Shown here piece after piece: positions 1 to 18,118 of a stretch of DNA of 64,000 nucleotides (position 1 is the stretch's first letter; every line of letters begins with the position of its first letter). A program made the position numbers and the translations under genes. This DNA is from Elusimicrobiota bacterium (GTDB taxonomy: Bacteria; Elusimicrobiota; Elusimicrobia; UBA1565; UBA9628): the NCBI GenBank assembly GCA_016194705.1, contig JACQAZ010000046.1, positions 2,372-66,371 on the forward strand, in the 5' to 3' direction. The notes below the pieces were generated by a model. That model did no database searches, had not been told where the DNA came from, and saw nothing but the letters and a program-made list of their open reading frames with translations.

Positions 1-56
1 CCGCCGAGAAGGCCAAGAAGCTCGTCGACATCCTCATCGAAAGGAAGCTGATCTAA
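1..56 (+). CDS. etfB: Electron transfer flavoprotein beta subunit, 3' end only (truncated by window edge)
   Basis: Frame from nt 3 reads AEKAKKLVDILIERKLI*, a typical EtfB C-terminus. Its TAA overlaps the etfA ATG (TAATG). Confidence 0.75.
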   Translation, partial: AEKAKKLVDILIERKLI

Positions 57-1057
57 TGAGCCAAGCCAACTCGGGCATCCTCGTCGTCGGGCTGGTCCAG
101 CGAGGCAAGCTCGCGTCCTCCGCTTACGAACTCCTGACCGCGGGCCGGGCCCTCGCCGATACCCTCAAAGAGCCTCTCGTCGCCGTCGTGCTCGGCGCCA
201 AGCCGGCGGACTACGCGAAGGACCTCATCGAGCGCGGTGCCGACAAGGCCTTCGTCATCGAGCACCCCTCGCTGGAGAATTTCAACGACGAGCTGCACAC
301 CAAGGCGGTCGCCGAGCTCGTCGAGAAGGAGAAGTTCGGCAAGGTCCTCATCGCGGCCTCGGTGGCCGGCAAATCGCTGGCGGGGCGGCTTGCGGTGCGG
401 CTGCGCGCGGGTCTGGCCGCCGACGCCTCCGAGGTCTACCAGAACGGGACCGGCCTCAAGGCCCGGCGCATGCAGTTCTCCGGAAACATCATCTCCGAGG
501 TCCAATTCGCATCTGCCGTGCAGATAGCGACGGTGCAGCCCATGACCTACCCCCGCTCCGAGAGACAGCCGGGCCGCTCGGGAGAGACGGTCGCCGTGGC
601 CTTCGACCCGGGCCCGGCGCGCATCGAATTCGTGAGCTTCCAGGCCGAGGAGACCTCAGAGGTCGATCTCGGCGCCGCCGAGAGGATCGTCTCCGGAGGC
701 CGCGGCCTGGGCAACGCCGACGGGTTCAAGATCGTCCGCGACCTGGCCCACGCGATCGGCGCCGCCATCGGGGCCAGCCGGGCCGTCGTCGACTCCGGCT
801 GGATACCATACCGGCATCAGGTGGGCTTGACGGGACGCACCGTGCGCCCCAAGCTCTATGTGGCCTGCGGCATCTCCGGCCAGATCCAGCACCTGGCCGG
901 CATGTCCTCGTCTGGCACGATCGTGGCCATCAACACCGACCCCGAGTGCCCGATGATGCAGCTGGCCTCGGTGGCGGTCGTCGGCGACGTCAACGAGCTC
1001 CTGCCCCTGATCACCGCCGAGATCAAGGCGCGCCGCGGCACGGCCGCCGCCGCTTGA
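56..1057 (+). CDS. etfA: Electron transfer flavoprotein alpha subunit
   Basis: FAD-binding motifs DLGAAERIVSGGRG, IGASRAVVD, QVGLTGRTVRPKLYVACGISGQIQHLAGM and AINTDPECP. Confidence 0.97.
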   Translation: MSQANSGILVVGLVQRGKLASSAYELLTAGRALADTLKEPLVAVVLGAKPADYAKDLIERGADKAFVIEHPSLENFNDELHTKAVAELVEKEKFGKVLIAASVAGKSLAGRLAVRLRAGLAADASEVYQNGTGLKARRMQFSGNIISEVQFASAVQIATVQPMTYPRSERQPGRSGETVAVAFDPGPARIEFVSFQAEETSEVDLGAAERIVSGGRGLGNADGFKIVRDLAHAIGAAIGASRAVVDSGWIPYRHQVGLTGRTVRPKLYVACGISGQIQHLAGMSSSGTIVAINTDPECPMMQLASVAVVGDVNELLPLITAEIKARRGTAAAA

Positions 1058-2924: not shown

Positions 2925-3799
2925 CGCGAGCCGATCCCGATGAAGAAGAGCCACATGAGGATCGAGACGCCGACCGCGATGGCCTTTTCGCGCGTGTTGT
3001 GCCTCAGGAAGCTCATGAGGCTCCTCTCGGAGGGGCGGGGCGCCTTCTCGAGGAAGAAGCCCTCGACGGTCTCCTGGAGGGTCCGCAGATCGGGCATGTT
3101 CTTGAGCTCGCCGCGCTCGGCCACCGAGATCGAGCCTTTCTCCTCGCTGACGATCAAGGCCATCGCGTCGGTGCGCTCGGTGAGCCCCAAGGCCGCAGTG
3201 TGGCGCGTGCCCAGGTTGGTCGTCTTGGCGAACTCCTTGGACAGCGGCAGGATGCAGCCGAAGCGCGTCACCTTGCCCTGCTCGATGAGGACCGCGCCGT
3301 CGTGGCCCAGGGAATGGGAGTCGAAGATGCTCTCGAGGATCGCCTCCGAGAGTTCGCCGTTGAGGTCCCAGCCGCCCTCGATGTGGCGGTCCAGGGGATC
3401 GGCCCCGTGCAGCACGATCAAGGCTCCGATTTTCTCGCGCGCGAAGTTGGCGACGGTTCCTACGAGAATCTCGACCTCCTTGGGCGAGGACTCCTCATTG
3501 GCTCCGCCCTGAAGGCTCCAGACCGCGATGCGCTCGAAGATGTGGCGCAGCTCCTCTTGGAAGATCACGACGATCGCGATGATCAGCACCGCGAAGAAGC
3601 CCTGAAAGATCCAGACGGTCATGTACATGCCCATGATGCGCGCCACCGTGTAGACCAGGGCCAGCACGAGGATGCCCATCGCGACGAAGGCCGTCTTGGT
3701 CTTCTTGAACCAAACGAGCAAAGCGTAGAGCAAGGTCGAGACCAGCGCGATATCGAGCGCGTCCTTGACGTGGACCGCTCCCAGCATTCCCAAGTTCAT
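2921..3799 (-). CDS. dacA: Diadenylate cyclase, CdaA/DacA type, three N-terminal TM segments
   Basis: DALDIALV TM start, IVIFQEELR, KIGALIV, IFDSHSLGHDGAVLI, GTRHTAALGLTERTDA and VSEEKGSIS. SD AAGGAGG precedes ATG 3799. Confidence 0.92.
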   Translation of the reverse strand: MNLGMLGAVHVKDALDIALVSTLLYALLVWFKKTKTAFVAMGILVLALVYTVARIMGMYMTVWIFQGFFAVLIIAIVVIFQEELRHIFERIAVWSLQGGANEESSPKEVEILVGTVANFAREKIGALIVLHGADPLDRHIEGGWDLNGELSEAILESIFDSHSLGHDGAVLIEQGKVTRFGCILPLSKEFAKTTNLGTRHTAALGLTERTDAMALIVSEEKGSISVAERGELKNMPDLRTLQETVEGFFLEKAPRPSERSLMSFLRHNTREKAIAVGVSILMWLFFIGIGSR

Positions 3800-4326
3800 C
3801 GGTGGGCCTCCTTCTTCTTGTCTCCGAGGAGCTCGGGCATGCTCCAGATCATGTCCTTTCGCGAGTAGGCCGAGAGCTCGACATCGTTCGCGTCCATGTG
3901 GATCGCGTCGACGGGGCAGGCCTCGACGCAGTAGCCGCAGAAGACGCAGAGCCCCAGGTCGATGTCGAAGCTCTTGGCGCGCTTCTCGATCTGGACGTCG
4001 GGGCTGTCCTCGGCGACGATGTGGATGCACTTGGCCGGGCAGATCGTCTCGCAGCACATGCAGGCCGTGCAGCGCGGCGTCCCGTCGTCGCGCTTCAAAA
4101 GACGGTGCCGGGTGCGCGCGCGGTTCCCAAGCATCGCCGGCACATCGGGAAACTGGATCGTGACCGCGCCGGGCTCCTTCGAGAGCCCGAGCTCGAAGAG
4201 GACGTGCCGGCTCATGTTGACGAAGAAATGCCTCAGGGTGATCAGCAGTCCCTTCAAGATCTCGAGGAAATAGATCTGGGTCGCCATGGTGCGCGCGGGG
4301 CGGCGCACGGTCGTCACCGAAATCAC
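3796..4326 (-). CDS. nuoI: NADH-quinone oxidoreductase subunit I
   Basis: Two 4Fe-4S motifs, CTACMCCETICP and CVFCGYCVEACP. GTG start overlaps the nuoH stop (GTGA); alternative ATG at 4288. Confidence 0.93.
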   Translation of the reverse strand: MISVTTVRRPARTMATQIYFLEILKGLLITLRHFFVNMSRHVLFELGLSKEPGAVTIQFPDVPAMLGNRARTRHRLLKRDDGTPRCTACMCCETICPAKCIHIVAEDSPDVQIEKRAKSFDIDLGLCVFCGYCVEACPVDAIHMDANDVELSAYSRKDMIWSMPELLGDKKKEAHR

Positions 4327-5348
4327 AGGCGGCTCCGAAGGTAGACCGCCCAGATCGTGACGATGAAGTTGGCCAGGGCCAGCGGCAGCACGTTCTTCCA
4401 ACCGAGGTGGAGGAGCTGATCGAAGCGGAAGCGCGGCAAGGTCCAGCGGACCTGCATGAGCAGGAAGAGTGTGACGAAGAGCTTGACCGTGAAGGACGCC
4501 AGCATCAAGACCGCTCCGAGCGCGCCATGCGGCTCGTAGAACGGGATCGTCCAGCCGCCCAAGAACAGCGTCGTCACCAGGCCAGCGACGACGACGGACT
4601 CGACGAAGTCGGTCATCATGAACATGCCCATCTTCATGCCCGAGTACTCGACGAAGTAGCCGACGATCTCGGACTCCCCCTCGGGAAGGTCGAACGGGGC
4701 GCGCTTGGTCTCGGCCACGCCGGCGGTCACGAAGAGCAGGAAGCCCAGAGGCTGCACGAGGATGCCCCAGGCGTGACGGCCCTGCCACAGCACGGCCTGC
4801 TGAAGGTCGAGGGTCCCGTAGATGAACAGGAGGCCCGCGAGGCTCGCGGCCAGGCAGACCTCGTAGGAGATCATCTGCGCGCCGCCGCGCAAGGCGCCCA
4901 GCAGGCCGTAGTTCGAGCCCGAGGCGTAGCCCGCCATCATGACGCCGTGCACGCCGAGGCCGAGCATCGCCAGGACAAAGAGCAGGCCGACGGGGCTCTC
5001 GACGGGCTGCAGGCTCCAGGAGCGGCCGGCGACCTCGACGACGCCGCCGAAGGGGAGCGCCGCCAGGCAGAGCAGGGCGAATCCCAGCGAGATCACCGGA
5101 GCCGCGCCATGGAGTCCCTTGCGCGCGCCCTTCGGAACGAAGTCCTCCTTGGTGAGGAGCTTGATCGTGTCGGCGAGCATGTGGATGAGGCCCCAAAGCT
5201 TGAAGCCGAAGATCGCGGCGCGGTTCGCTCCGATGCGGTCCTGCATGACGGCGCTCTGCTTGCGCTCAGCCCAGGCCAGAAGGCCGGCGACGTTGAGCCC
5301 GAAGCCCAGCGCGGCCGCGACCTTGAGGAGCGGCCATGCCGCCGTCAT
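4323..5348 (-). CDS. nuoH: NADH-quinone oxidoreductase subunit H
   Basis: ERKQSAVMQDRIGANR, ADTIKLLTKED, AETKRAPFDLPEGESEIVGYFVEYSG and RWTLPRFRFDQL. Confidence 0.97.
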   Translation of the reverse strand: MTAAWPLLKVAAALGFGLNVAGLLAWAERKQSAVMQDRIGANRAAIFGFKLWGLIHMLADTIKLLTKEDFVPKGARKGLHGAAPVISLGFALLCLAALPFGGVVEVAGRSWSLQPVESPVGLLFVLAMLGLGVHGVMMAGYASGSNYGLLGALRGGAQMISYEVCLAASLAGLLFIYGTLDLQQAVLWQGRHAWGILVQPLGFLLFVTAGVAETKRAPFDLPEGESEIVGYFVEYSGMKMGMFMMTDFVESVVVAGLVTTLFLGGWTIPFYEPHGALGAVLMLASFTVKLFVTLFLLMQVRWTLPRFRFDQLLHLGWKNVLPLALANFIVTIWAVYLRSRL

Positions 5349-6874
5349 GCTACGGCCTCCTCTCGCCGATCGCCGGCCAAGTGTTCGGCCAGACCATGGA
5401 AGATCGCCCAGTCGGGCTTGGCCGATCCCAGCGGCTCGAGGGCCTTCTTGTAGGCCTGGACCGTCCCCCCGAAATTCGTGAAGTGCCCCTCCTCCTCGAC
5501 GTAGGCGGTCGCGGGCAGGCGATAATGCGCGAGGTCGCCCGTCGCGGTCTTATTGGGGCCCTGGAAGATCACGAGACCGAGCTTGGACAGCAAATCGGCC
5601 GTACGCTGGCCCCACACTTTGGTTAAGTCGCGCTCGACAACGTACAGGCCCCAGACCTTTCCGGCCTCGATGTCCTTGGCCAGGGAGTCCCACGAAGCCG
5701 AGGGGATCTCCGTGCCGAAGCCCTGGGCCTGGCCGCCCTTGAGGTTGGGGACCTTCTCGCGCTTGCGCAGGAGCTCATCCTCCTCCCCGAGCTGGTCGGG
5801 CTCGGGGCCGAAGACGAAGTGCTTGACGCCCAAGGTGTCGACGAAGAGGACCTTGAACGCGGCCCAGTCCTCGTTCGAGAGCATGCCAGAGGCGATCACG
5901 ACGAGCCCTCCCGCCCCCTTGCCCGCCGAGCGCGAGGCCAGGGCGGAGGCGATCTCCTCGAAGGCCTCGGTCCACGAGAGCTCGCGGCGCTGGTCCTTGA
6001 GACGCATCACGCGGCCCAATCGATCATGATCCAGGCTGTCATACCCGAATCTTCCATCGTCGCAGATCCACCAGCCGTTGACCTCGGGGTTGTGGCGCGG
6101 CTTGATGCGGGCGACGCGCCTGCCGTCGTTGTGCCAGGGCCTCTCCGTGTTCGTGTGCACGGAGGTCGAGCACCCGCGGCTGCAGCCGGGGCAGACCGAG
6201 TCGGTCTCGTCGAGGTACCAAACCCTTACCTTGTAGCGGAAATCCTTCTCCGTGAGAGCCCCGACGGGGCAGATGTCGACGACGTTGCCGGAATAAGGGT
6301 TGTCGAGCGTCTTGCCTGGGACCAGGTCGATGTATTGCCCGTGTCCGCGGCCGAAGATGCCGAGCTCGTGGGTCTTTGTGACCTCGTCGACGAAGCGGGT
6401 GCACCGCGTGCAGAGGATGCAGCGCTCCTGGTCGAGCATCACGTGGGGGCCGGCCTCGATGCGCTTGCCCTTGTGCAGCTTGTCCTCGCGGACCTGGCTC
6501 TCGTAGCGGCCGATCTCCATGTAGTAGTCCTGCAGGCCGCACTCGCCGCTCTGATCGCAGACCGGGCAGTCGAGCGGATGGTTGACGAGGTGCAGCTCGA
6601 GCGAGGACTGCTGAGCGCGCATGGCGGCCGGCGAGTCGGAAGCCACGACCATGCCTTCCTTGACGAAGGTCCGGCAGGAGACCAGCGGCTTGGGCGCGCC
6701 TTGGACCTCGACGACGCAGAGCCGGCAGTTGCCCGGATTGCCCAGCGCGGGATGGTAGCAGTAGTGCGGGATCTCGACGCCGGCGTCCTTGGCGGCGTCG
6801 ATCAGGAGCCGGCCCTCCGGTGCCTCGACCTCGCGGCCGTTGAGCTTGAACTTGACCGTCTTGGACTCGCTCAT
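5345..6874 (-). CDS. nuoG: NADH-quinone oxidoreductase subunit G (short, 509 aa)
   Basis: IPHYCYHP..GNCRLC..SC (N1b), HPLDCPVCDQSGEC.LQD, RCILCTRCTRF and CPVGAL; CPGCSRGC (N7-type motif). Confidence 0.93.
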   Translation of the reverse strand: MSESKTVKFKLNGREVEAPEGRLLIDAAKDAGVEIPHYCYHPALGNPGNCRLCVVEVQGAPKPLVSCRTFVKEGMVVASDSPAAMRAQQSSLELHLVNHPLDCPVCDQSGECGLQDYYMEIGRYESQVREDKLHKGKRIEAGPHVMLDQERCILCTRCTRFVDEVTKTHELGIFGRGHGQYIDLVPGKTLDNPYSGNVVDICPVGALTEKDFRYKVRVWYLDETDSVCPGCSRGCSTSVHTNTERPWHNDGRRVARIKPRHNPEVNGWWICDDGRFGYDSLDHDRLGRVMRLKDQRRELSWTEAFEEIASALASRSAGKGAGGLVVIASGMLSNEDWAAFKVLFVDTLGVKHFVFGPEPDQLGEEDELLRKREKVPNLKGGQAQGFGTEIPSASWDSLAKDIEAGKVWGLYVVERDLTKVWGQRTADLLSKLGLVIFQGPNKTATGDLAHYRLPATAYVEEEGHFTNFGGTVQAYKKALEPLGSAKPDWAIFHGLAEHLAGDRREEAVA

Positions 6875-8115
6875 GCGGGCACCTTCGACTTAAAGTCGTC
6901 CGGGAACTTCTTCATGAAGCCGCGCGTGACCATGCCCACCGTGTCTCCGAGCGCGCAGATGACCTTGCCCGTGATGTTCTCGCCGATGCGCTGGAGGTTC
7001 GGGAGATCTCCGCTGGTCCCCTTGCCCTCGAGCATCCGACCGAGGATGCGGGTGGTCCACTCGCTGCCCTCGCGGCAGGGCGTGCATTGGCCGCAGGACT
7101 CGTGGGCGAGGAAGCGCTCGATGTTGTGCGCGACCTCGGACATGTCGCGGGTCTCATCGAGAACGATGACCCCGCCGGCCCCCAAAAACGAGCCGACCGA
7201 GCGAAGGGAGTCGAAATCCATCGGCGTGTCGAGCTCGGAGGCGGAGAGAGGCGGCGTCGAGGCGCCGCCCGGGATGACGGCCTTGACCTTTCGCCCCCCT
7301 CGGACGCCGCCCGCGGCGTCGATGATTGCACGCAGCGGGGCGCCCATCGCGAACTCGTAGACGCCGGGCTTCTCGACGTCCCCCGAGACTGAGTAGACCG
7401 CCGTGCCTCCGCTGCCGGGAAGCTTCTTCTCGGGGTTCGGGAGCACGCCGAGCTTGGCGAACCAGTCGCCTCCGTTGACGATGATGTGCGGCAGCATCGC
7501 GAGCGTCTCGACGTTGTTGACGACCGTCGGCTGGCCCATGAGGCCCACGACCGTTGGAAAGGGAGGCGGCTGGCGCGGCCAAGCCTTTTTGCCCTCCATC
7601 GTCTCGAGCAGCGCGGTGTCTAGGCCGCAGATGTAGGCCCCGGCGCCGCGCATGAGGCGGACCCTGACCTTGCCGGTCAGCCCCGCCTCATCCGCCTCGG
7701 CGATCGCTTTCTCGAGGATCTTGAACGGGATGCCGTACTCGCCGCGGATGAAGATGAAGGCCCACTCGGCCGAGACGGCGTGGGCCGCGATGAGCAGGCC
7801 CTCGATGATCTGGTGCGGCGCGCGCTCGCCGAGCACGCGGTCCTTGAAGCAGCCGGGCTCGCTCTCATCGTAGTTGGCAACCACATACCGCTCGGGCGCC
7901 TTGTCGGCGGGCGGCATCGTGCTCCACTTGCCGCCGACCGGGAAGCCCGCGCCGCCCAGGCCGCGGAGGTTGGATTTGGCGACCTCGGCCGCGATCTCGG
8001 CGGGCTTCATCTTCAGCGCCTTCTCGAGCCCTTTGTAGCCGCCGAGCTTGCGGTAGGTCGCCAGCTCGTGGAGCTTGGGCTCGTTAAAATGCTGCGTAAG
8101 AATCTTCGTACTCAT
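6871..8115 (-). CDS. nuoF: NADH-quinone oxidoreductase subunit F
   Basis: LRGLGGAGFP, DESEPG..KDR, GAGAYICG, NNVETL, ESCGQCTPCREG and ICALGD (N3 cluster). Confidence 0.95.
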   Translation of the reverse strand: MSTKILTQHFNEPKLHELATYRKLGGYKGLEKALKMKPAEIAAEVAKSNLRGLGGAGFPVGGKWSTMPPADKAPERYVVANYDESEPGCFKDRVLGERAPHQIIEGLLIAAHAVSAEWAFIFIRGEYGIPFKILEKAIAEADEAGLTGKVRVRLMRGAGAYICGLDTALLETMEGKKAWPRQPPPFPTVVGLMGQPTVVNNVETLAMLPHIIVNGGDWFAKLGVLPNPEKKLPGSGGTAVYSVSGDVEKPGVYEFAMGAPLRAIIDAAGGVRGGRKVKAVIPGGASTPPLSASELDTPMDFDSLRSVGSFLGAGGVIVLDETRDMSEVAHNIERFLAHESCGQCTPCREGSEWTTRILGRMLEGKGTSGDLPNLQRIGENITGKVICALGDTVGMVTRGFMKKFPDDFKSKVPA

Positions 8116-8231
8116 CTTACCTGTGGTGCCGGGGTTGTAGAACTGTCGCCGGGGACAGTTGATGCCAGGCCGTCCATGAAGATCGAACTCTTGCCGGCAA
8201 GAGTCTTAATGTCTGGCACTTTGACCATCGA

Positions 8232-8720
8232 CTACTTGCCTCCCCTCGCAACTTTGGCGACCACATCTTCCGTGGCCTTTCCCTGTAGGTCCTCGTTGAC
8301 GAGGAGCGCCGGCGCGAAATCGCAGGCGCCCAGGCACTCCATCTCTTCCCACGAGAACTCGCCGTCCTTGGTCGTCACGCCCTCGGGAACGCCGAGCTTG
8401 TCCTCGAGGCATTTGGCCATCTTGTCCGAACCCGCCAAAGCGCAAGAGAGGCCGTGGCAGAGGCCGACGCGCTTGCGGCCCGTGGGTGCCTGCGTGAACA
8501 TCGGGAAAAAGGTGACCAATTCGTGCACGCGCGTGCGCGTGGTCTTGAAAAGCGAGGCGACGTAGTCCTCATGCTCGGGCCTCACGCAGAGATTCCATAG
8601 CTGGACCTGGCGCAGGGCCTCGAGCAGGCCCATGATCGGATAGGGATAGTGCGCGGTCCAAGACTTCAGGACTTTCTCCTCCTCGGCAGTGAAGGGCTTG
8701 GCCGCCGCTACGGGAGTCAT
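8232..8720 (-). CDS. nuoE: NADH-quinone oxidoreductase subunit E
   Basis: VTFFPMF, VGLCHGLSCALAG and EMECLGACDFAP (2Fe-2S N1a). ATG 8720 overlaps the nuoD stop. Confidence 0.93.
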   Translation of the reverse strand: MTPVAAAKPFTAEEEKVLKSWTAHYPYPIMGLLEALRQVQLWNLCVRPEHEDYVASLFKTTRTRVHELVTFFPMFTQAPTGRKRVGLCHGLSCALAGSDKMAKCLEDKLGVPEGVTTKDGEFSWEEMECLGACDFAPALLVNEDLQGKATEDVVAKVARGGK

Positions 8721-10036
8721 CGATCCAATTCTCCCGCGATCATGTTGACCGACCCGAAGGTCGGGATCACGTCGGCCACCCAGCCGCCGTTCAAGAGCTT
8801 GGGCAAGGCGGCCATGATGTAGAGGCACGGCGGGCGGCAGCGCACGCGCCAAGGGCGGTCGGCGCCCGACGAGACGATGTGAAAGCCGAGTTCGCCGTTG
8901 CCGCCCTCGACGGCGGAGTACGCCTCGCCGGCCGGGACCTTGATGCCCCAGGACCACATGACGAGCTCGAAGTGGTTCATGAGGCCCTCGATGGAGCCGT
9001 AGGCGTCCTCCTTGGCGGGCATCACGAAGATCGGGTCTTGCACGAGGACATCGGGCCTATCGCCGCGCTGGCCGCCCTGCAAGGTCTGGTCGACCTTCGC
9101 CTTGTACTTGGCCAAGAGGCCGGTCTCTCCGTGCTTGCCCTGGTCCTGGTACTCGAAGGCGTCCTTCATTTCCTTGGGCTCGAGAGAGTGCTTGCCCTCG
9201 GGCATCAGTTTGAAGCATTGCTCGACGATCCGGAGGGACTGCTCGATCTCCGCCATGCGGCACAGATACCGGTCGAAGTTGTCTCCCTTGGTCCCGACCG
9301 GAACCTCGAAGTCGAGCTTGTCATACCCGAGATACGGGTGCGCGCGGCGCACGTCGTAGGGCACGCCGGTCGAGCGCAGGAACGGGCCCGTGATGCCGTA
9401 GGACAGCGCCTCCTCTTTCGTGATCGCCCCCGTGCCGTCGACGCGGTCCATGAAGATGCGGTTCTTGGTCAGCAGCTTGTCGGTGTCGGAGACCGCCTCG
9501 CGGACCTTCTTGAAGGCCTCCGCGCACTTGTCGGGGAAATCCGCGGGCATGTCGGCCTTGACGCCGCCGACGCGCGTGTAGGAGGTCGTGATCCGCGCTC
9601 CCGTGAGCTGGTCGACGAGCTGGTAAAGGTACTCGCGGGCCTTGATCATGTAGAGAAAGGCCGTGAAGGCGCCGAGCTCCATCGCCGAGGCGCCTACGCA
9701 GGTCAGGTGGTCGGTCACGCGCGAGATCTCCGAGGCGATCACGCGCAGGTACTGCCCTCGCTCCGGGAGCGCGATCCCCGCGAGCTTCTCGACGGCCATG
9801 CAGTAGCCCGCGTTGTTGATCAGAGGTGAGACGTAGTTGAGGCGGTCGGTCCAGGGCACCACGTTGTTCCAGGTTTCCGCTTCGGCGTGCTTCTCGAAGG
9901 CGCGGTGCAGGTAGCCGATCTCGACGTCGGTCTTGACGATCTTCTCGCCCTCGAGTTCTAAGACGAGGCGCACAACGCCGTGCATGGCAGGGTGCGCCGG
10001 TCCCATGTTGAGCATGTAGGTCTTCTGTTCTCTCAT
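8717..10036 (-). CDS. nuoD: NADH-quinone oxidoreductase subunit D
   Basis: LNMGPAHPAMHGVVRL, GYLHRAFEK, DRLNYVS, GELGFHIVS and FGSVNMIAGELDR. Confidence 0.97.
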   Translation of the reverse strand: MREQKTYMLNMGPAHPAMHGVVRLVLELEGEKIVKTDVEIGYLHRAFEKHAEAETWNNVVPWTDRLNYVSPLINNAGYCMAVEKLAGIALPERGQYLRVIASEISRVTDHLTCVGASAMELGAFTAFLYMIKAREYLYQLVDQLTGARITTSYTRVGGVKADMPADFPDKCAEAFKKVREAVSDTDKLLTKNRIFMDRVDGTGAITKEEALSYGITGPFLRSTGVPYDVRRAHPYLGYDKLDFEVPVGTKGDNFDRYLCRMAEIEQSLRIVEQCFKLMPEGKHSLEPKEMKDAFEYQDQGKHGETGLLAKYKAKVDQTLQGGQRGDRPDVLVQDPIFVMPAKEDAYGSIEGLMNHFELVMWSWGIKVPAGEAYSAVEGGNGELGFHIVSSGADRPWRVRCRPPCLYIMAALPKLLNGGWVADVIPTFGSVNMIAGELDR

Positions 10037-10037
10037 C

Positions 10038-10526
10038 CTAGTCGTACTTGATCGTCGGCCTCACGACGTTGAATGAAGGGCTCTCGGGGAGTTCTCCCGA
10101 ATCCGGTCCGATCAGCGGCTGGCGCTTGGCGATCGGATAGTCCTTCCTCAAGGGGTGTCCCTGGAACTCCTCGTACATCAGCAGGCGCTTGATGCGCGGC
10201 CGGTCGGCGAAGCCCACGCCGAACATGTCCCAAACCTCGCGCTCGAGCCAGTCGGCGACGGGCCAAAGAGAAGCGGCCGATCTCAACACGGGCTCCTCGC
10301 CGACGCCGCAGTGCAGCTCGACGCGCCCGCCGTCCTTGCCGGTCTCGGCGTCGAGCTTCATGACCTGGTAGATCACGTCAAAGCGCTCGCCAATCGGAGG
10401 CTTCGGATGTCCGAGATAGTCGACGGCCGTCATGTCGACGAGCACATTGTAGCCCTGCTCTTTCAAGGCCTTGAGTTCCTCGACATTGTTGGCCGCGGCG
10501 CAGCGCCGCAGTTCCGGGGCGATCAC
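10038..10526 (-). CDS. nuoC: NADH-quinone oxidoreductase subunit C
   Basis: DMTAVDY, ADWLEREVWDMFGV.F and LLMYEEFQGHPLRKDYP. GTG start overlaps the nuoB stop. Confidence 0.93.
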   Translation of the reverse strand: MIAPELRRCAAANNVEELKALKEQGYNVLVDMTAVDYLGHPKPPIGERFDVIYQVMKLDAETGKDGGRVELHCGVGEEPVLRSAASLWPVADWLEREVWDMFGVGFADRPRIKRLLMYEEFQGHPLRKDYPIAKRQPLIGPDSGELPESPSFNVVRPTIKYD

Positions 10527-10999
10527 CTGCGTTTCCCCGCTTGCCTCTGGATCTTTTCCTGAAGCAACACCAGCCCCTGGATGACCGTCTCGGGCCTTGG
10601 AGGGCAGCCCGGGATGTAAAGGTCCACAGGCAAAATGGTGTCGATGCCCTGCACCGTCGAATAGTCGTTGTAGAAGCCGCCCGTGCAGGTGCAAACGCCG
10701 AAGGCCACGACCCATTTGGGCGAGGCCATCTGGTCGTAGATGCGGCGCAGGACGGGTGCTATCTTGTGCGAGATCGTGCCGACGACCATCAGCACGTCGG
10801 ACTGGCGCGGCGAGAAGCGAGGGAACACCGCGCCGAATCGGTCGAGGTCGTAGTGCGAGGCCGCGGTCGACATATATTCCATTCCGCAGCACGCGGTGAC
10901 GAAGGGGTAGTTGAAGAGCGAGTACTTGCGGCCCCAAGCGAGCGCCGCTTCAAGCTGGGTCGCGATCGTGCCCGCCGGGACGTAGTCGTCTACCGGCAT
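10523..10999 (-). CDS. nuoB: NADH-quinone oxidoreductase subunit B
   Basis: TACCGMEYM, RFSPRQSDVLMVVGT, GVCTCTGG and DLYIPGCPPRPE. Confidence 0.96.
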   Translation of the reverse strand: MPVDDYVPAGTIATQLEAALAWGRKYSLFNYPFVTACCGMEYMSTAASHYDLDRFGAVFPRFSPRQSDVLMVVGTISHKIAPVLRRIYDQMASPKWVVAFGVCTCTGGFYNDYSTVQGIDTILPVDLYIPGCPPRPETVIQGLVLLQEKIQRQAGKRR

Positions 11000-11343
11000 T
11001 CCAGCGCCCCCTTGCGCCAAAAATACGCGAGCATGAACGCGACCAGCGCGACGAAGGCCGACATCGTCAGCATCTGCGGGAGATCGACGGACCGCCGGTT
11101 GAGGGCCCACGGCAGCAGGAAGGCGAGGTCCACGTCGAAGACCACGAACAGGACCGCGAAGCGGTAATAGGGCACCGCCATCCGGTCGACCGCGGGCTCG
11201 ATCGGGACCTCGCCGGTCTCGTAGGGCATTTCGGCGTCGCCCTCGTGGCGCGGCTTGGGCCCGAACAGCCAGCCCGCGCATGAAAGGGCCAAAACGACGG
11301 CCGCTGTCAACATGACGTCGAGCCCGATCGCCATGGAGCTCAC
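10990..11343 (-). CDS. nuoA: NADH-quinone oxidoreductase subunit A
   Basis: PYETG, YYRFAVLFVVFDVDLAFLLPWA and YFWRKGAL. GTG 11343 overlaps the nuoN stop; alternative ATG 11334. Confidence 0.93.
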   Translation of the reverse strand: MSSMAIGLDVMLTAAVVLALSCAGWLFGPKPRHEGDAEMPYETGEVPIEPAVDRMAVPYYRFAVLFVVFDVDLAFLLPWALNRRSVDLPQMLTMSAFVALVAFMLAYFWRKGALECR

Positions 11344-12713
11344 GGCGCAAGCCACCCCGCCAGGCCGCCGACGAGCCACGGCGCCAGCCCCAGGACCGCG
11401 GCCGGGACCGCGCAGGCCCAGACGACGCCCGAGAACGCGGCGGAAACCTCGATCGGCGTCTTGGACGGAGCGCGGGACTCCTCGAAATACATGTCGCGGA
11501 TCAGTCCGAGATAGTAGCCCAGCGACAGCAGAGCGGCTAAGCCCGCGCCCGCGACCGGGGCCCAAAGCCCGGCCTTGACCGCCTCCCAGAAGATCAGCAG
11601 CTTGGCGAGGAACCCCGCCGTCGGCGGGATCCCGGCCAGGGCCAGGAGAAGGGCGGCAAACAGGGCGGCCTTGAGCGGCGCGCGCAGGGCGTAGCCTTTG
11701 AGTTCGGCGCGAGAGCCGATCCCCGAGGCCCTCAAGAACGCGAAGGCGCCGTTGCTCATGAAAGCGTAGGAGGCGAGGTAAAAGAACAGGGGAGCCGTGC
11801 CCGCGGGCAGCGCGCCCTGGGCCGCCCAGGCCCCGGCGCCAAGCACGAGGTTGCCCGCGTGCGCGATCGAGGAGTAAGCCAGCAGCCTCTGCAGGCGCTC
11901 CTGGCGTAGGGCCGAAATGGCGCCCACGACGGCCGTCAGCGCTCCCAGGGCCGGCAAACAAGCCGCGAACTCCGAGCTTGGGGTCAGCGCGAGCAGGCGC
12001 AGCAGCAGCAGCAGTCCCGCCGATTTCATCGAGGTCGACATGAGCCCGGCGAGCTCCGGCGAGGCCGCCTCGTAAGCATCCGGCAGCCAGAAGTGCAGTG
12101 GAACGGCCCCGAGCTTGAAGAGCGCCGCCACCCCCATCAATGCGACTCCCGCTTCGGCCATCGTTCCCGCCGCCCCGACCAGCGCCAGGCTCTTGGTGGC
12201 CGCGTAGTACAGGGCCATGCCCAGAAGAAACAGCGCGCCGGCCAAGCCGCCCGCGAAGAAATACTTCACCGCGGCTTCCTCGGCCTGGCCGCTTCTGCCT
12301 CCACCGCGAGACACTAGAAGATACGCCGGAAGCGACATGAACTCGAGCCCGATGAAAAGCATCAGCAAGTTTCCCGAGACCGCGAGCAAGGCCATGCCGA
12401 GCACGGAACCTAAGGCCAGCGCGGCGGGGACCTCGTCTTCCGCCAACGACAGGGCGTAGGGGACCGCTCCCAGATAGAACAGAAACTGCCAGGAGACGCC
12501 GAGCCCGTCGATGCGGATCAGAGGGCCGTACGCGCCGGGGACGGTCAGCCCGGCCAGGAGCGTCGAGGAGGCCAGCACGAAGAGCACGACGGCCCTGAGG
12601 AACCCGCGCGGCAGCCGCTGGGACATGCCCGCGGCCAAGGCGGCCAGGAGCCCCGCCCCCAGGCACAATTGAGGACCCAGACCGACGAAGGGGAATTGCA
12701 GCAAGGGGTTCAT
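11340..12713 (-). CDS. nuoN: NADH-quinone oxidoreductase subunit N
   Basis: FIGLEFMSLPAYLL, EAAVKYFF, FKLGAVPLHFWLPDAYE, RLLAYSSIAHAG and AGIPPTAGFLAK. ATG overlaps the nuoM stop. Confidence 0.94.
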   Translation of the reverse strand: MNPLLQFPFVGLGPQLCLGAGLLAALAAGMSQRLPRGFLRAVVLFVLASSTLLAGLTVPGAYGPLIRIDGLGVSWQFLFYLGAVPYALSLAEDEVPAALALGSVLGMALLAVSGNLLMLFIGLEFMSLPAYLLVSRGGGRSGQAEEAAVKYFFAGGLAGALFLLGMALYYAATKSLALVGAAGTMAEAGVALMGVAALFKLGAVPLHFWLPDAYEAASPELAGLMSTSMKSAGLLLLLRLLALTPSSEFAACLPALGALTAVVGAISALRQERLQRLLAYSSIAHAGNLVLGAGAWAAQGALPAGTAPLFFYLASYAFMSNGAFAFLRASGIGSRAELKGYALRAPLKAALFAALLLALAGIPPTAGFLAKLLIFWEAVKAGLWAPVAGAGLAALLSLGYYLGLIRDMYFEESRAPSKTPIEVSAAFSGVVWACAVPAAVLGLAPWLVGGLAGWLAP

Positions 12714-14146
12714 GGCAGCACCGCCGCCGCGGCGGCGCCCGAGACCAGGCGCAGCCAAGGGCCGGGGCAGAGGCCGATGAGGAGCATCAGCAGCGAGAGA
12801 CTCCACAAGAGGCCGCGCTCGCGGGAATCGAGGTCGGTGACGCGCGCGCTCGCCGCTTCGGGTCCGGCCGCGCCCCAGAACACTGCCTGGTAGGCGGGGA
12901 GCAGGTACGCGGCGGCCATGGTCACCCCGGCCACGCCGGCCACGGCGAGCGACGGCAGCACCCGCGTCATGCCGGCCAAGGACATGAACTCTCCGACGAA
13001 GCCATTGAGGCCCGGCAGGCCGATCGAGGCGAAGACCGAGAAGCCGAAGAAGAACGCGAGCCAAGGGGCGCGGCCGGCGAGCTCGCCAAAATCCGCGATG
13101 CCCCGCCGGTGCGAGCGCTCGTAGAGGAAGCCCACCATCAGGAACAGCGCTCCCGTCGTGAGGCCGTGGTTGATGAGCTGGAGGCTGCCGCCGGCGAGTC
13201 CCTCGGGCGTGCGCGAGAAGACCCCGAGCAGGCAGAAGCCGAGGTGGGCGACGCTCGAGTACGCCACCAGACGCTTGAGGTCGGTCTGCGCCATCGCGCA
13301 AAGCGCCCCGTAGATCACGTTGATCGCGGCGCACGCGCCCAGCCACGGCAGCAGCGAGCGGGAGAGCTCCGGGAAGGCCGGCAGGGCCACGCGCACGATG
13401 CCGTAGACGCCCATTTTGAGCAGCACGCCTGCGAGCATGACCGAGCCGGCGGCGGGAGCCTCGGTGTGCGCGTCGGGCAGCCAGGTGTGCAGTGGAACGA
13501 CCGGGACCTTGACGGCGAAGCCGATCATCACGGCCGCGAAGGTCGCCAAGGCCGCGGGGCCCGACGCTCCGCCCCTGAGCGCGTCCATGTCCCAGGTCCA
13601 CACGCCGGTCGTCTGATGATGGCGCGTCACCAAGGCGAGCAGGCCCAACAGCAGGAAGACGCTCCCAAAGAAGGTGAACAGGAAGAATTTTATGGCCGCG
13701 TGGCGCCGACCCTCCGAGCCCCAAAGGCCGATGATGAAGAACATCGGGATCAGCACGGCCTCCCAAAAGATGTAGAAAAAGAAGACGTCGCGAGCCAGGA
13801 AGACTCCCATCAGAGCTCCCTCGAGAAACAAGAACGCGGCCCAGTAGCCGGGAGAAAACTCCTGTTTCCAGGAGCCCAAGATCGAAATCACCGTCAAGAA
13901 AGCCGTCAGTCCGCAAAGCGCCAATGACAGGCCGTCCACGCCCAAGCGGTAGCGGATTCCCCACGCCCAAACGGGGCCGGCCTCGGACAGGGACGAGAGA
14001 GCATCGAGCCGGAGGAGCGGCAGCGCGCAGGCCAAAAGGACCAGGACGGAGAAGCCGAGCGCGGCGCCGCGGGGATCCTTGCGCCAGCCCAAGGCCGCGA
14101 AGCCTCCGAGCACCGGCAGCGCCCAGAGGGCGGTGAGCAGCCTCAT
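12710..14146 (-). CDS. nuoM: NADH-quinone oxidoreductase subunit M
   Basis: LGVDGLS, FYIFWEAVLIPMF, FAVKVPVVPLHTWLPDAHTEAP, KRLVAYSSVAH and GLPGLNGFVGE. ATG overlaps the nuoL stop. Confidence 0.96.
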   Translation of the reverse strand: MRLLTALWALPVLGGFAALGWRKDPRGAALGFSVLVLLACALPLLRLDALSSLSEAGPVWAWGIRYRLGVDGLSLALCGLTAFLTVISILGSWKQEFSPGYWAAFLFLEGALMGVFLARDVFFFYIFWEAVLIPMFFIIGLWGSEGRRHAAIKFFLFTFFGSVFLLLGLLALVTRHHQTTGVWTWDMDALRGGASGPAALATFAAVMIGFAVKVPVVPLHTWLPDAHTEAPAAGSVMLAGVLLKMGVYGIVRVALPAFPELSRSLLPWLGACAAINVIYGALCAMAQTDLKRLVAYSSVAHLGFCLLGVFSRTPEGLAGGSLQLINHGLTTGALFLMVGFLYERSHRRGIADFGELAGRAPWLAFFFGFSVFASIGLPGLNGFVGEFMSLAGMTRVLPSLAVAGVAGVTMAAAYLLPAYQAVFWGAAGPEAASARVTDLDSRERGLLWSLSLLMLLIGLCPGPWLRLVSGAAAAAVLP

Positions 14147-16011
14147 CTCACCACCGTCCACAGAAGAACCGACGTGCCCGCCAGCATCCACCAAAGATAG
14201 TCGTTGAGGCTCCCCGTGGCGAGCGCGCAGGCCAGGTCGGCCGCGCCGCTGGCAAAGTCGGCCGTCGACTCGACGATGCCGTCCCAAATCCCCTTGTCCC
14301 AGAGTCCGCCGACGGCGTCGGCGCCGATGCGCACGCCATGGGCGAGCAGCGCCACGACCGTCTTCCAGCCGAGGTCCGACTCGAAGGCCGCCTCGAGCTC
14401 GGGCATGCGCGAGCGCCACTGCCAGTCCCAGGACGGCAGGCCCATCGTGAGCCAGTAGGCGGCCCCGGCTCCCGCCAGGGCGGCGGCGGTGCCCCAGATG
14501 GCCATGGGCCAGTCGAAGGCGGGCAGCGCCTCGACGCCCGCGCGCAAAGGCCAGCCGACATTGATCAGGCGCGAGAAGCCGTCTTGGAGCCAGCCGACGC
14601 CCAAAGCGCCGAGCGTGAGGAAGAGAACGGGAACCGCCATGATCGGCGGCGCGTCGTGCGCGTGCTCGCCTCGGCGCTTCTGCTCGGCGCGCCGGCCGAA
14701 GAAGGTCAGAAACAACATGCGGAAGATGTAGAAGGCGCTGCCCGCGGCGATGGCCAGCCCCGCCGCGAAGGCGGCCGGACCGTGGCGGCGCGCTTCGTGC
14801 AGGATCGCGTCCTTGCTGAAGAAGCCCGCGAAGGGCCCGATCCCCGAGAGCGAGAGCGCCGCGGCCGCGAAGCAGAAGAAGGTCAGCGGCATCGCACGCC
14901 TCATGTCGCCGACGTCGTCGACGGAGGCCGTGCTCTGATGCAGGGCGTGGGCGATGTTGCCGGCGCAAAGGAAGAGGACCGCCTTGAAGAAGCCGTGCGT
15001 GATCAGGTGGAAGATCGCCGGGCCCACCGCGCCCAGGCCTAGGGCGAAGGCCATGAGCCCGAGGTGGCTGACCGTCGAGTAGGCGAGGATGCGCTTGAGA
15101 TCGGTCTTGGTGCCCGCGACGATCGCCGCCCCGATCGCGGTGAACGCTCCGACGCAGGCGATCAGCTCGGGCAGGCCCGGCACGGAGACGACGATGGGCC
15201 AAGAACGCGCCAGCAGGAAGATCCCGGCCGTGACCATGGTGGCGGCGTGCATCAAGGCGGACACCGGGGTCGGCCCTTCCATGGCGTCGGGCAGCCAGAA
15301 ATACAGAGGGAACTGGGCCGACTTGGCCGAGGCCGCCCAGAACAAGAGGACGCCCGTCAGTCCGAGCAGCTTCGGTTCGGCCGTCGAGATCAGCGGAAAG
15401 ACGTAGGAGAAGCGCGCACCGCCCGGGCCGAAGAGCAGGAGCAGCAGGAGCACGGCGAGCATGAGCCCGAAATCGCCGACGCGGTTGGTCATGAAGGCCT
15501 GCAGTGCCGCCCTTCGAGCCGTCTCCTTGTGGTACCAGAACCCGATGAGCAGATAGGAAGCGACGCCGACGAGCTCCCAGAACAAGTAGAGCTGGACGTA
15601 GTTGTTCGAGACCAGAAGCCCGATCATCGCGAGATAAAAAAGGTGGAAGTAGAGGAAGAAGCGCGAGAAGTCCGGGTCCTCGGCCATGTACCCGCAGGCG
15701 TAGAGGTGGATCAGGCCGCCGACGAAAGACACCATGGCGAGCACGCTGGCGGAGAGCCCGTCGATGCGGACGCCAAACGAGATCTTCCAGGAGCCCGCGG
15801 TAAGCCAAGTGAACGCGTCCTGGTCGAGCTCCCAGCCCGTGTAGGCTCGGGAGGCGAGCCAGACGCTCGCCGCCGTCACGAGCGCGCAGGAGATCAGGAT
15901 CGGAACGTGAGTCAACGAGGGCTTGAGCGGACGCACGATGAGAAAGCCGACGAGTAAGGCCGCCACGGGAGCGGCGAAGAGGACGACGACGGCCAGCGGG
16001 AGAGCCGCCAT
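14143..16011 (-). CDS. nuoL: NADH-quinone oxidoreductase subunit L
   Basis: YMAEDP..SRFF, WELVGVASYLLIGFW, KSAQFPLYFWLPDAMEGPTPVSALMHAATMV and HGFFKA.LFL. ATG 16011 overlaps the nuoK stop (TGATG). Confidence 0.96.
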   Translation of the reverse strand: MAALPLAVVVLFAAPVAALLVGFLIVRPLKPSLTHVPILISCALVTAASVWLASRAYTGWELDQDAFTWLTAGSWKISFGVRIDGLSASVLAMVSFVGGLIHLYACGYMAEDPDFSRFFLYFHLFYLAMIGLLVSNNYVQLYLFWELVGVASYLLIGFWYHKETARRAALQAFMTNRVGDFGLMLAVLLLLLLFGPGGARFSYVFPLISTAEPKLLGLTGVLLFWAASAKSAQFPLYFWLPDAMEGPTPVSALMHAATMVTAGIFLLARSWPIVVSVPGLPELIACVGAFTAIGAAIVAGTKTDLKRILAYSTVSHLGLMAFALGLGAVGPAIFHLITHGFFKAVLFLCAGNIAHALHQSTASVDDVGDMRRAMPLTFFCFAAAALSLSGIGPFAGFFSKDAILHEARRHGPAAFAAGLAIAAGSAFYIFRMLFLTFFGRRAEQKRRGEHAHDAPPIMAVPVLFLTLGALGVGWLQDGFSRLINVGWPLRAGVEALPAFDWPMAIWGTAAALAGAGAAYWLTMGLPSWDWQWRSRMPELEAAFESDLGWKTVVALLAHGVRIGADAVGGLWDKGIWDGIVESTADFASGAADLACALATGSLNDYLWWMLAGTSVLLWTVVR

Positions 16012-16307
16012 CAGCCGCGCAGCTCCTGCAGCCGCCCCGCGTCGACGGGGCGGCCCGACTGGTAGACCCTCAGGATCAAAGAGAGGCCGACCACGGCCTC
16101 GGCCGCGGCCACGGCCAGGATCAGCAGGACCGCGGCCAGGACCTCGGCGTCGCAGAACAGGCCCGCGTGATAGACCAAGGCGAGGTTGGCCGCGCTGATC
16201 ATGAGCTCGAGGCCCAGGAGCATCGCGATGAGCTGGCGGCGCAGCACGACCAGCAGCAGCCCCGCCGCGAACAAGAACAGGACGACGCCCCAAAGAGACG
16301 CGGTCAT
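16011..16307 (-). CDS. nuoK: NADH-quinone oxidoreductase subunit K
   Basis: 98 aa; LIAMLLGLELMISAANL and VAAAEAVVGLSL. ATG overlaps the nuoJ stop. Confidence 0.92.
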   Translation of the reverse strand: MTASLWGVVLFLFAAGLLLVVLRRQLIAMLLGLELMISAANLALVYHAGLFCDAEVLAAVLLILAVAAAEAVVGLSLILRVYQSGRPVDAGRLQELRG

Positions 16308-16786
16308 CGCGCCCTCCGCTCGACGATGGCCAAGCCCGCCAGGAACATCAAGACGGTGACGACCTCGGTCGCGACGGCGTACGGGCCGAAAAGCACCGGC
16401 CCGAGCTGTGACTGCACGGCCAGCGCGCCGCCCACCGAGCCCTCGGGCAGGGCCCCGCGCCATAGGATGACGGCGGTCTCGACGAGAGGGACCACGATCA
16501 CGGCCGCGGCGAAGGGCTTGGGCAAGGACAGCGGGGTCTCGCCCCCGGTCTCGAGAGCGGGGGCCGCCATGATCATGATCACGATGAGCACCATGACCGC
16601 TCCGGCGTAGATCATGACCTGGAGAAAGGCCAGCATCGGGGCGCCCGCGAAGAAAAAGAAGACGGCGGCCTGGAAGAGGACGACGAGCTGGCAGACCGCG
16701 CTCACGTACAGCGAGCGGCTGAACAGCATCAGGGCGGCAAAGACGCAGGCCGTGACGCCGGCGACAAGCATCGCGAAATGTGCCAT
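16304..16786 (-). CDS. nuoJ: NADH-quinone oxidoreductase subunit J
   Basis: AFLQVMIYAGAVMVLIV.MIM motif; hydrophobic 160 aa. Confidence 0.92.
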   Translation of the reverse strand: MAHFAMLVAGVTACVFAALMLFSRSLYVSAVCQLVVLFQAAVFFFFAGAPMLAFLQVMIYAGAVMVLIVIMIMAAPALETGGETPLSLPKPFAAAVIVVPLVETAVILWRGALPEGSVGGALAVQSQLGPVLFGPYAVATEVVTVLMFLAGLAIVERRAR

Positions 16787-16797
16787 TTGTCGCGGTA

Positions 16798-16826
16798 ATT
16801 CTAGGATTTTTAGGGAGCCCGGTAAA
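16798..16826 (-). promoter_or_regulatory. Putative sigma70 promoter of the nuo operon (TTTACC-17-TAGAAT)
   Basis: Minus-strand TTTACC (16826-16821), 17-nt spacer, TAGAAT (16803-16798), ending 11 nt before the nuoJ ATG in an AT-rich gap. Confidence 0.55.
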
Positions 16827-16834
16827 GCGCGCCG

Positions 16835-18118
16835 CTACTCGTAATGCAGGGCTTCGACCGGGTCGAGTTTGGAGGCCTGGCTGGCGGGATAAAGCGCGAA
16901 GACAAAACCCGTGCCGACCGCGATGAGCACGGTGAAAAGGAAGTGCGAGGGCGCCATGCTGTACATGTCCCGCTCGGCGTGGCGCGAAAGATACATCACG
17001 CCCCCGGCCCCCAAGCCAAGGCCGGCGATCCCCCCCATCAAGCCCAAGGCCATGGCCTCGACGAGGAACTGCATCATGATGTCGCCCCGAGTGGCGCCGA
17101 CGGCGCGGCGTATGCCGATCTCCTTGATGCGCGAGTAAATCGTCGCCAAGGTCACGTTCATGATGCCGATGCCGCCCGCCAGGATCGCGACGATCCCGAT
17201 GGCGAGGATCGCGACGACATATTGATGAATCTGGTTTAGGATGCCCTGGATATCCTCCCGGTTATCCTTGATGTCGTAGTCGACCTCGCCGCGATGGCGC
17301 GCCTTGATGAACTCGTCGATGCGCCGCTTGTAGAGCGGGATCGTTTTCTCGTCTCCCGTGTCGATCTCGACGCGATTGACATGACGGACCACCGACTGCC
17401 TCGACTGAAAGGACAGAGTGCGCTGGTATGTCGTGATGGGGACGAGTATCGTTCCGCTGCCGCCGTAGCTGTTTGTTTCCCAGCGCGGGTCCTTGTCCCG
17501 CGGCGGCTCCTTGATGATCCCGACGACGGTGAAGAGGTGGTCGCCGAGCTTCACGGTCTGGCCGAGCAGATCGCGCCGCTTGAGCATGTCGCCGAAATCG
17601 GAGTCGTGGAAGTACTTGGCCCACCACGGCTTCTCTACCCAGCCCCCGGGCTGTACGATGACGCAGACGCGCGCGCCTTGTCGAACGTCCTCCGAATTGA
17701 TGAAGCGCCCGCGCTGGCGGTAGACCCAATCGCGCTTGACCCACTCCTCCGTGATGCCCGTGGCGAGGAGGTCCTCGTTGTGATAATCTTGAAACCTGAA
17801 ATGCTGCCCATACCCGCGCACGAGCGGGTTGACCATGTAGAGTTCGGGCATGGTCCGACGGATCTCTTCGGCGTCGTCCGAGGTCAGCCCGGGGGAGAGC
17901 CCTTTGGAGACGTAGTTCTCCTTCTTCTCGATATAGATGCGGCCCGGTCCCATCAGGAGCAGGTTCTCATCGATCATCTTGTGCATGCCGCGGATCTGGG
18001 CGAACGTGTAGAGGATCGCGGCCGTGCCGATCGTGATGGCAAAGAAGCTCAAGAACGACCGCATCTTGTTCGACGATATCTCGAGCCACGCCGTGCGCAG
18101 GGCCTCCCAGAGGTTCAC
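16835..18118 (-). CDS. ABC transporter permease, MacB/FtsX family
   Basis: NKMRSFLSFFAITIG, periplasmic MacB-like core, GGIGIMNVTLATIYSRIKEIGIRRAVGA and YPASQASKLDPVEALHYE. GTG start overlaps the ATPase stop. Confidence 0.92.
   Translation of the reverse strand: MNLWEALRTAWLEISSNKMRSFLSFFAITIGTAAILYTFAQIRGMHKMIDENLLLMGPGRIYIEKKENYVSKGLSPGLTSDDAEEIRRTMPELYMVNPLVRGYGQHFRFQDYHNEDLLATGITEEWVKRDWVYRQRGRFINSEDVRQGARVCVIVQPGGWVEKPWWAKYFHDSDFGDMLKRRDLLGQTVKLGDHLFTVVGIIKEPPRDKDPRWETNSYGGSGTILVPITTYQRTLSFQSRQSVVRHVNRVEIDTGDEKTIPLYKRRIDEFIKARHRGEVDYDIKDNREDIQGILNQIHQYVVAILAIGIVAILAGGIGIMNVTLATIYSRIKEIGIRRAVGATRGDIMMQFLVEAMALGLMGGIAGLGLGAGGVMYLSRHAERDMYSMAPSHFLFTVLIAVGTGFVFALYPASQASKLDPVEALHYE

Follow-up and report, generated by a model that had tools for sequence, protein, structure and literature searches.

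A rebuilt adenosine and pyrophosphate subsite in NuoF of an Elusimicrobiota complex I that probably still oxidises NADH

The NuoF subunit encoded in the window (the whole stretch of 64,000 nucleotides that was analysed) carries substitutions at residues that bind or gate NADH, and these substitutions are fixed in one clade of groundwater Elusimicrobiota that comprises an order and an additional family. The explanation we prefer, at a probability of about 0.55 and judged from sequence comparison, is that the protein is a working NADH dehydrogenase module with a rebuilt adenosine/pyrophosphate subsite. The FMN loop, the cysteines of cluster N3, the nicotinamide contacts and most of the adenosine contacts are invariant, which points to a dehydrogenase acting on a dinucleotide, most likely NADH. 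The proposed mechanism treats NuoF as the flavoprotein subunit of a proton-pumping 14-subunit complex I that would oxidise nicotinamide adenine dinucleotide, most likely NADH, at FMN. Leu, Leu and Pro would take the place of the charged network Arg66-Glu184-Lys202, including the Glu184-Lys202 pair that opens upon NADH binding. The ribose-binding Glu185 would be shortened to Asp, and Thr would replace Phe79, one of three adenine-stacking aromatics. Several residues appear to have been fixed along with these changes (W198, Q201, C100, M212, M226 and Lys384 beside the pyrophosphate loop), and some of them probably compensate. The expected outcome would be altered kinetics, with weaker or faster-exchanging NAD(H) binding and possibly looser discrimination against NADPH, rather than a different class of electron donor.

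The gene lies in a complete nuo operon (Table 1). Its product matches the three domains Complex1_51K (PF01512), SLBB and NADH_4Fe-4S (PF10589) with E-values of 6e-41, 3e-10 and 2e-27, all of which pass the curated cut-offs. The hallmarks of a 51-kDa subunit are present, namely four N3 cysteines, the GGAGF loop for FMN and VVNNVET, and both GGAGF and VVNNVET are invariant in the clade. Fe-S motifs are also found in NuoE, NuoG and NuoI.

Table 1. Position of nuoF, its altered and retained motifs and neighbouring genes within the window
Feature	Position	Strand	Description
nuo operon	3796..16786	(-)	complete, 14 genes, order nuoJKLMN-ABCDEFGHI
nuoF	6871..8115	(-)	414 aa; domains Complex1_51K + SLBB + NADH_4Fe-4S
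NuoF glycine-rich loop RGLGGAGFPVGGKWSTM	7915..7965	(-)	R66L and F79T changed; G67, F71, K76 retained
NuoF NYDESEPGC	7849..7875	(-)	N92, D94, E95, E97 retained; NYDESEPG = 7852-7875
NuoF YICGLDTAL	7609..7635	(-)	Y180 and G183 retained; E184L, E185D changed
NuoF PRQPPPFP	7555..7578	(-)	L201Q, K202P changed; R200, F205 retained; clade-invariant W179 upstream
NuoF CGQCTPC	7075..7095	(-)	three of the four cluster N3 cysteines: C341, C344, C347
NuoF KVICALGDTV	6937..6966	(-)	fourth N3 cysteine C387; clade-specific K384, V385, V393
nuoE	8232..8720	(-)	162 aa; N1a cysteine motifs present
nuoG	5345..6874	(-)	509 aa, compact form
nuoD	8717..10036	(-)	439 aa
etfA	56..1057	(+)	opposite strand to nuo; outside the feature

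Aligned with the solved NuoFs of M. smegmatis (8e9g, 8x9v) and A. aeolicus (7q5y), the protein departs from the family at RGR (RGL here), FPT (FPV), KWSF (KWST), NAD (NYD), GEETAL (GLDTAL) and PRL[KR]PPFP (PRQPPPFP). The canonical RGRGGAGFPTG.KWSF thus reads RGLGGAGFPVGGKWST. In A. aeolicus numbering the changes are R66L, T72/73V, F79T, A93Y, E184L, E185D, L201Q and K202P. The residue map behind this numbering reproduces the published numbers F71, K76, F79, E95, E97, D103, Y180, E185, K202, Y205 and G394; the T. thermophilus numbering runs one behind within the first motif and coincides from 92 on. The informative changes are R66L, E184L, E185D and K202P, together with F79T. Where a canonical NADH site has R66, E184, E185 and K/R202, this NuoF has L, L, D and P. 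Position 93 varies within the clade (A, C, Y, F, L), as does T72/73V, and both A93Y and T72/73V therefore appear to mean little.

The preliminary description had quoted four motif strings between positions 7555 and 7970 and read them as substitutions in the NADH/FMN site. All four are present as quoted and lie inside that interval, and the substitutions are genuine, as shown by the alignment to solved NuoFs and by 149 family representatives without the combination. Its selection of residues holds for E184L, E185D, K202P and F79T; it also counted the clade-variable A93Y and T72/73V, and R66L was passed over. Its interpretation is partly supported, in that the pocket has indeed changed and selection has fixed the change throughout a clade.

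Published structures assign a role to most of these residues. In A. aeolicus NuoF, F71, F79, Y205, P206 and V207 contact the adenine, K76 contacts the adenine ribose, E185 and G394 (via water) and K202 contact the pyrophosphate, and G67, E95, E97, D103 and Y180 contact the nicotinamide end (PMC9299107). In T. thermophilus, the adenine stacks on Phe70, Phe78 and Phe205 and the ribose binds to Glu185 (PMC4694087), while Lys202 pairs with Glu184 and shifts onto NADH upon binding (PMC7171172). The roles given in the preliminary description for the adenine-stacking Phe, for Glu185 at the ribose and for Lys202 agree with these three papers. The A. aeolicus list has 13 published contacts, of which this NuoF lacks just F79 and K202 and has a conservative Asp in place of E185. 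The residues invariant in 50 clade members comprise G52-G57, F58 (F71), K63 (K76), N81, D83, E84, E86, D92, Y161, G164, D166 (185), R181, F186 (F205), the NNVET region and the four N3 cysteines. The retained contacts indicate an intact nicotinamide/FMN half of the site, while the adenosine/pyrophosphate half is without the charged network of R66, E184 and K202. The loop that carries K384, V385 and V393 adjoins the NADH pyrophosphate in A. aeolicus, at G394 (PMC9299107), and K384, three residues ahead of the last N3 cysteine, could stand in for Lys202. An AlphaFold2 model of NuoF built from 50 clade sequences reached a mean pLDDT of 85 and a pTM of 0.87, with pLDDT below 50 for residues 158-190, the loop from GLDTAL to PRQPPPFP. 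This low confidence may be technical in origin, given an alignment of little depth in which the loop does not vary.

The pocket is exceptional within the NuoF family. A search of 1.84 billion cluster representatives returned one close representative at 64% identity, with the next ones at 52% or less, and the comparison set consisted of 149 more distant representatives of 50%-identity clusters. Of these 149, 133 have R at position 66, 144 have E at 184, 139 have E at 185 and 143 have K or R at 202; among the 30 complex-I-type representatives the corresponding counts are 30, 29, 30 and 29. Position 79 is less constrained, with F in 23 of the 30. R66 is replaced by Met or Leu in 11 of the 149, which are otherwise canonical. 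None of the 149 combines the changes at R66, E184, E185 and K202. The combination is likewise absent from the 79 taxon-named NuoFs among the matches listed in a genome-collection scan with a generic pattern, where EE occupies 184/185 in every case and K202 and F205 are kept wherever the last motif is readable. This panel spans Acidobacteriota, Bdellovibrio, Verrucomicrobiota, Proteobacteria, Planctomycetes, Leptospira, Gemmatimonadota, a halobacterial MAG and others. The sole Elusimicrobia locus among the matches listed has CD at 184/185 and P at 202. Judged on these alignments, the departure of the pocket lies well beyond chance.

Beyond the main pocket changes, about 35 further NuoF positions bring to about 40 the number that the clade has fixed and that are seldom found outside it. 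By a post-hoc count, many fall in segments that line the site: N49, C89 (100), T172, K177, W179 (198), Q182, M193 (212), M207 (226), K384, V385 and V393. Cys89 (position 100; window 7849-7851) is invariant in the clade, and Thr is found there in 27 of 30 complex-I-type NuoFs. Cys163 (window 7627-7629) corresponds to the usually conserved Cys182; it is Ser in most clade members and Cys here. Unusual pockets also occur elsewhere in the family. Four HydB-like proteins of 631-823 aa (P0194, P0197, P0256 and P0261) carry GESTAL, with Ser at 185 and His or Arg at 205, and P0256 has PRAKYIH in place of PR.[KR]PPFP; this group may represent a natural NADP(H)-type pocket. On an unrelated branch, P0196 (523 aa) has GADTAL (A184/D185), Thr202 and His205, and here the Glu184/Lys202 pair may have been lost independently a second time.

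The substitutions define a single Elusimicrobiota lineage. The 120 closest database proteins share 65-80% identity with this NuoF and are nearly all labelled Elusimicrobia. RGLGG and G[L/A]DTAL are found in all 120, so that Asp at 185 is invariant among them, PRQPPPFP in 119, and T79 in nearly all. In a maximum-likelihood tree the variant NuoFs are monophyletic (SH-aLRT 100), with a stem of 0.33 substitutions per site and short internal branches. About 53 of 401 Elusimicrobiota genomes sampled across the phylum encode the variant. It occurs in almost every member of the window's family, in the majority of members of two others from its order, and in one additional family. A NuoF with YICGEETAL and PR[LI]KPPFP, about 50% identical, is found in two other families within the class. 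Between members of the window's family NuoF is as conserved as NuoD (80% in both cases) and more conserved than NuoE, NuoG and NuoH, which indicates that nuoF is under strong constraint. Other variant-carrying genomes of the same family and order encode HydB-type paralogues with FVCGEETAL and P[RK].RPP[FY]P. These paralogues keep the canonical EE/R pocket, and hence the change is specific to complex I and does not reflect drift of the lineage.

The operon itself shows no companion innovation. nuoF lies within the nuo operon in all variant loci examined, the order nuoJKLMN-ABCDEFGHI is kept wherever the locus is long enough, and none of these loci has an added gene in the operon. A small-genome genus of the same family (G190, locus L048) lacks nuoG, nuoH and nuoI within 8.5 kb after nuoF, and its operon is split. 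We considered whether the compact NuoG and the permuted operon belong to the pocket innovation and rejected this idea, for the compact NuoG is common to Elusimicrobiota families with canonical NuoF, and in one of them (f8) the nuoJKLMN-ABCDEFGHI permutation and the long NuoD occur as well. The canonical pocket in families with these traits places the pocket change later than, and independent of, the permutation of the operon and the trimming of NuoG. NuoD here is about 50 aa longer than in the Elusimicrobiota family with A-to-N gene order, a third family in which nuo follows this usual arrangement. Two loci from the family with permuted order and canonical NuoF (L037 and L043) bear two NuoM-like genes in tandem.

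The gap between nuoE and nuoF measures 116 nt here (window 8116-8231). In two relatives it holds 8 kb (L047, 9672-17796) and 3.2 kb (L051, 9716-12916) of DNA with lower GC (0.55-0.56 vs 0.62), including a 953-aa ORF. In L051, a 2-kb insert with a GC of 0.47 (15271-17282) lies between nuoC and nuoB. Foreign DNA appears to enter at the gaps between nuo genes. The genes inserted between nuoE and nuoF in relatives were set aside as candidate donors, as they lie in low-GC foreign DNA and no electron-carrier gene stood out among them.

At the genome level (4.16 Mb, 95% complete), NuoF is the sole PF01512 protein, which leaves no RnfC and no second NuoF. PntB was not found in the genome. A search of the genome for NDH2_C gave no match, a result from an insensitive search in which the E. 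coli control was also without a match. With no second PF01512 protein and no match for PntB or NDH2_C, the 14-subunit complex is the visible route from NADH to quinone. The genome also encodes a second complex I of 11 subunits without nuoEFG (contig C34, about 54700-64760), whose nuoA, B, C, D, H, I, K, L, M and N were found by similarity. Complexes of this 11-subunit kind without NuoEFG have been proposed to use ferredoxin, and the 14-subunit complexes of groundwater Elusimicrobia have been described as canonical (10.1101/765248). No mention of the NuoF pocket change was found in that study or in the other literature searched.

Mutants of FdsB, the NuoF homologue of R. capsulatus formate dehydrogenase, give the closest view of what such changes can do (PMC10671435). 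Variants of K157 (equivalent to K76) are inactive. E259D (position 185) has no NADP+ activity, and its Km for NAD+ rises from 0.12 to 2.75 mM, about 23-fold; E259R, K, G and Q gain NADP+ activity. K276A (position 202) gains weak NADP+ activity, with a Km for NAD+ of 6.8 mM, about 57-fold up. The carboxylate at 185, invariant in the clade, acts as a discriminator between NAD and NADP, and E259D stays NAD+-specific (PMC10671435). By analogy, the invariant Asp185 argues for NAD over NADP, and without Lys202 binding would be expected to be weaker and somewhat looser. These single-mutant kinetics do not transfer, because here the two changes occur together with E184L and R66L in a pocket where many positions have co-evolved. 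Some of the evidence counts against the preferred reading: the four changed positions are near-invariant in every NADH-linked relative, the Km of FdsB rises in E259D and K276A with a gain of NADP+ activity in the latter (PMC10671435), and HydB-type paralogues from the same family and order keep the canonical pocket.

A proton-pumping complex I with natural dual NAD(P)H use, or with a preference for NADPH, would follow if the loss of the Glu184-Lys202 gate and the short Asp185 admitted the 2'-phosphate. Morina et al., in 2011, reportedly found that Glu183 variants of E. coli NuoF gain NADPH use, and they are said to have described NADPH-using complex I as known only from engineered E. coli enzymes. 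The K276A result points in this direction, so that among the changes here only the loss of K202 suggests relaxed specificity, and PMC10671435 cites a higher NADPH affinity for E. coli NuoF with the equivalent glutamate changed to Gln or His. New basic residues, R376 and K384, have also become fixed in the clade close to the pyrophosphate loop, and the lack of a detected PntB transhydrogenase fits as well. Yet Asp185 keeps its repelling charge where charge removal would be expected, and FdsB with the same Asp shows no NADP+ activity (PMC10671435). Moreover, two basic residues (R66 and K202) are lost, no gained basic residue was identified at the 2'-phosphate position, and the pocket is unlike the possibly phosphate-friendly one of HydB-like relatives with Ser185 and His/Arg205. 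The NADPH preference proposed in the preliminary description is thus not favoured, and we regard this alternative as unlikely. The changes could instead be a functionally neutral repacking in which hydrophobic residues replaced a buried salt-bridge network, NADH kinetics stayed normal and the physiological meaning is nil. The 11 otherwise canonical relatives with Met or Leu at 66, the paired loss of E184 and its partner K202, typical of a compensated change, and the A184/D185/T202 pocket of P0196 all agree with this. Against it, the positions are fixed in nearly all NADH-linked relatives sampled across many phyla, the FdsB single mutants show large kinetic effects (PMC10671435), and the roughly 40 clade-fixed positions appear clustered around the site in the post-hoc count. 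Neutrality is, in our estimate, also improbable.

A pocket that refuses free dinucleotide, with FMN fed by a protein carrier such as ferredoxin, flavodoxin or ETF, is more doubtful still. The loss of the charged gate and of two direct NADH contacts speaks for it, as does the conservation of etfA as a neighbour within the family. However, the adenine, ribose and nicotinamide contacts, among them F71, K76, D185 and F205, are invariant, which would be unexpected for an unused cleft. The genome already has the 11-subunit complex of the kind proposed to use ferredoxin (10.1101/765248), the nuo operon holds no extra gene, and NuoE, NuoF and NuoG are all present, whereas ferredoxin- or flavodoxin-fed relatives (cyanobacterial NDH-1, Campylobacter Nuo and 11-subunit Nuo) lack NuoE and NuoF or have unrelated proteins in their place. 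The preliminary description had placed etfAB next to the operon. A nearby etfA is indeed found, but it is convergent with the operon and lies 2.7 kb from nuoI behind three unrelated genes (cdaA, a DHH gene and tlpA); this neighbourhood is kept only within the window's family and is absent at the variant loci of the families f2, f3 and f11. ETF was rejected as a partner on these grounds, and the suggestion of another carrier finds no support. Oxidation of NADH through a rebuilt subsite remains the preferred account.

Arg66, Glu184, Glu185 and Lys202 have been treated as fixed in the NADH site of complex I and in all its soluble relatives. An order that lacks them could serve as a natural experiment on substrate gating, NAD+ release, discrimination between NADH and NADPH and the control of flavin reactivity. 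It also bears on whether metabolic surveys that score this nuo operon as a canonical NADH dehydrogenase are right, for example in groundwater Elusimicrobia (10.1101/765248), and on whether attempts to engineer the cofactor use of NuoF-type modules from hydrogenases and formate dehydrogenases could draw on the sequence solution of this clade. Should the enzyme use NADH with ordinary kinetics, interest would be confined to the structural biology of the site.

Comparison with known systems places this NuoF close to, and apart from, several references. Canonical NuoF/Nqo1 proteins (A. aeolicus 6hl2/7q5y, T. thermophilus 3iam, M. smegmatis 8e9g) share about 50% full-length identity with it, along with the three domains, the FMN loop, the N3 cysteines, E95, E97, D103, Y180, K76, F71, F205 and the 14-gene nuo operon; they differ at R66L, F79T, E184L, E185D, L201Q and K202P and at the further clade-fixed positions. 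The FdsB variants E259D and K276A alter the same positions 185 and 202 in a NuoF-family pocket, but each is one engineered mutation in a soluble enzyme, whereas the clade combines both with E184L and R66L (PMC10671435). The E. coli NuoF Glu183 variants change the same ribose-binding glutamate within a proton-pumping complex I. In the NADPH-using ones the charge is removed (Gln, His; as cited in PMC10671435), whereas the clade keeps Asp. The sister-family complexes I (L035-L038, L043) belong to the same class and share the compact NuoG, in f8 also the permuted order and the long NuoD, and they differ in retaining YICGEETAL and PR[LI]KPPFP.
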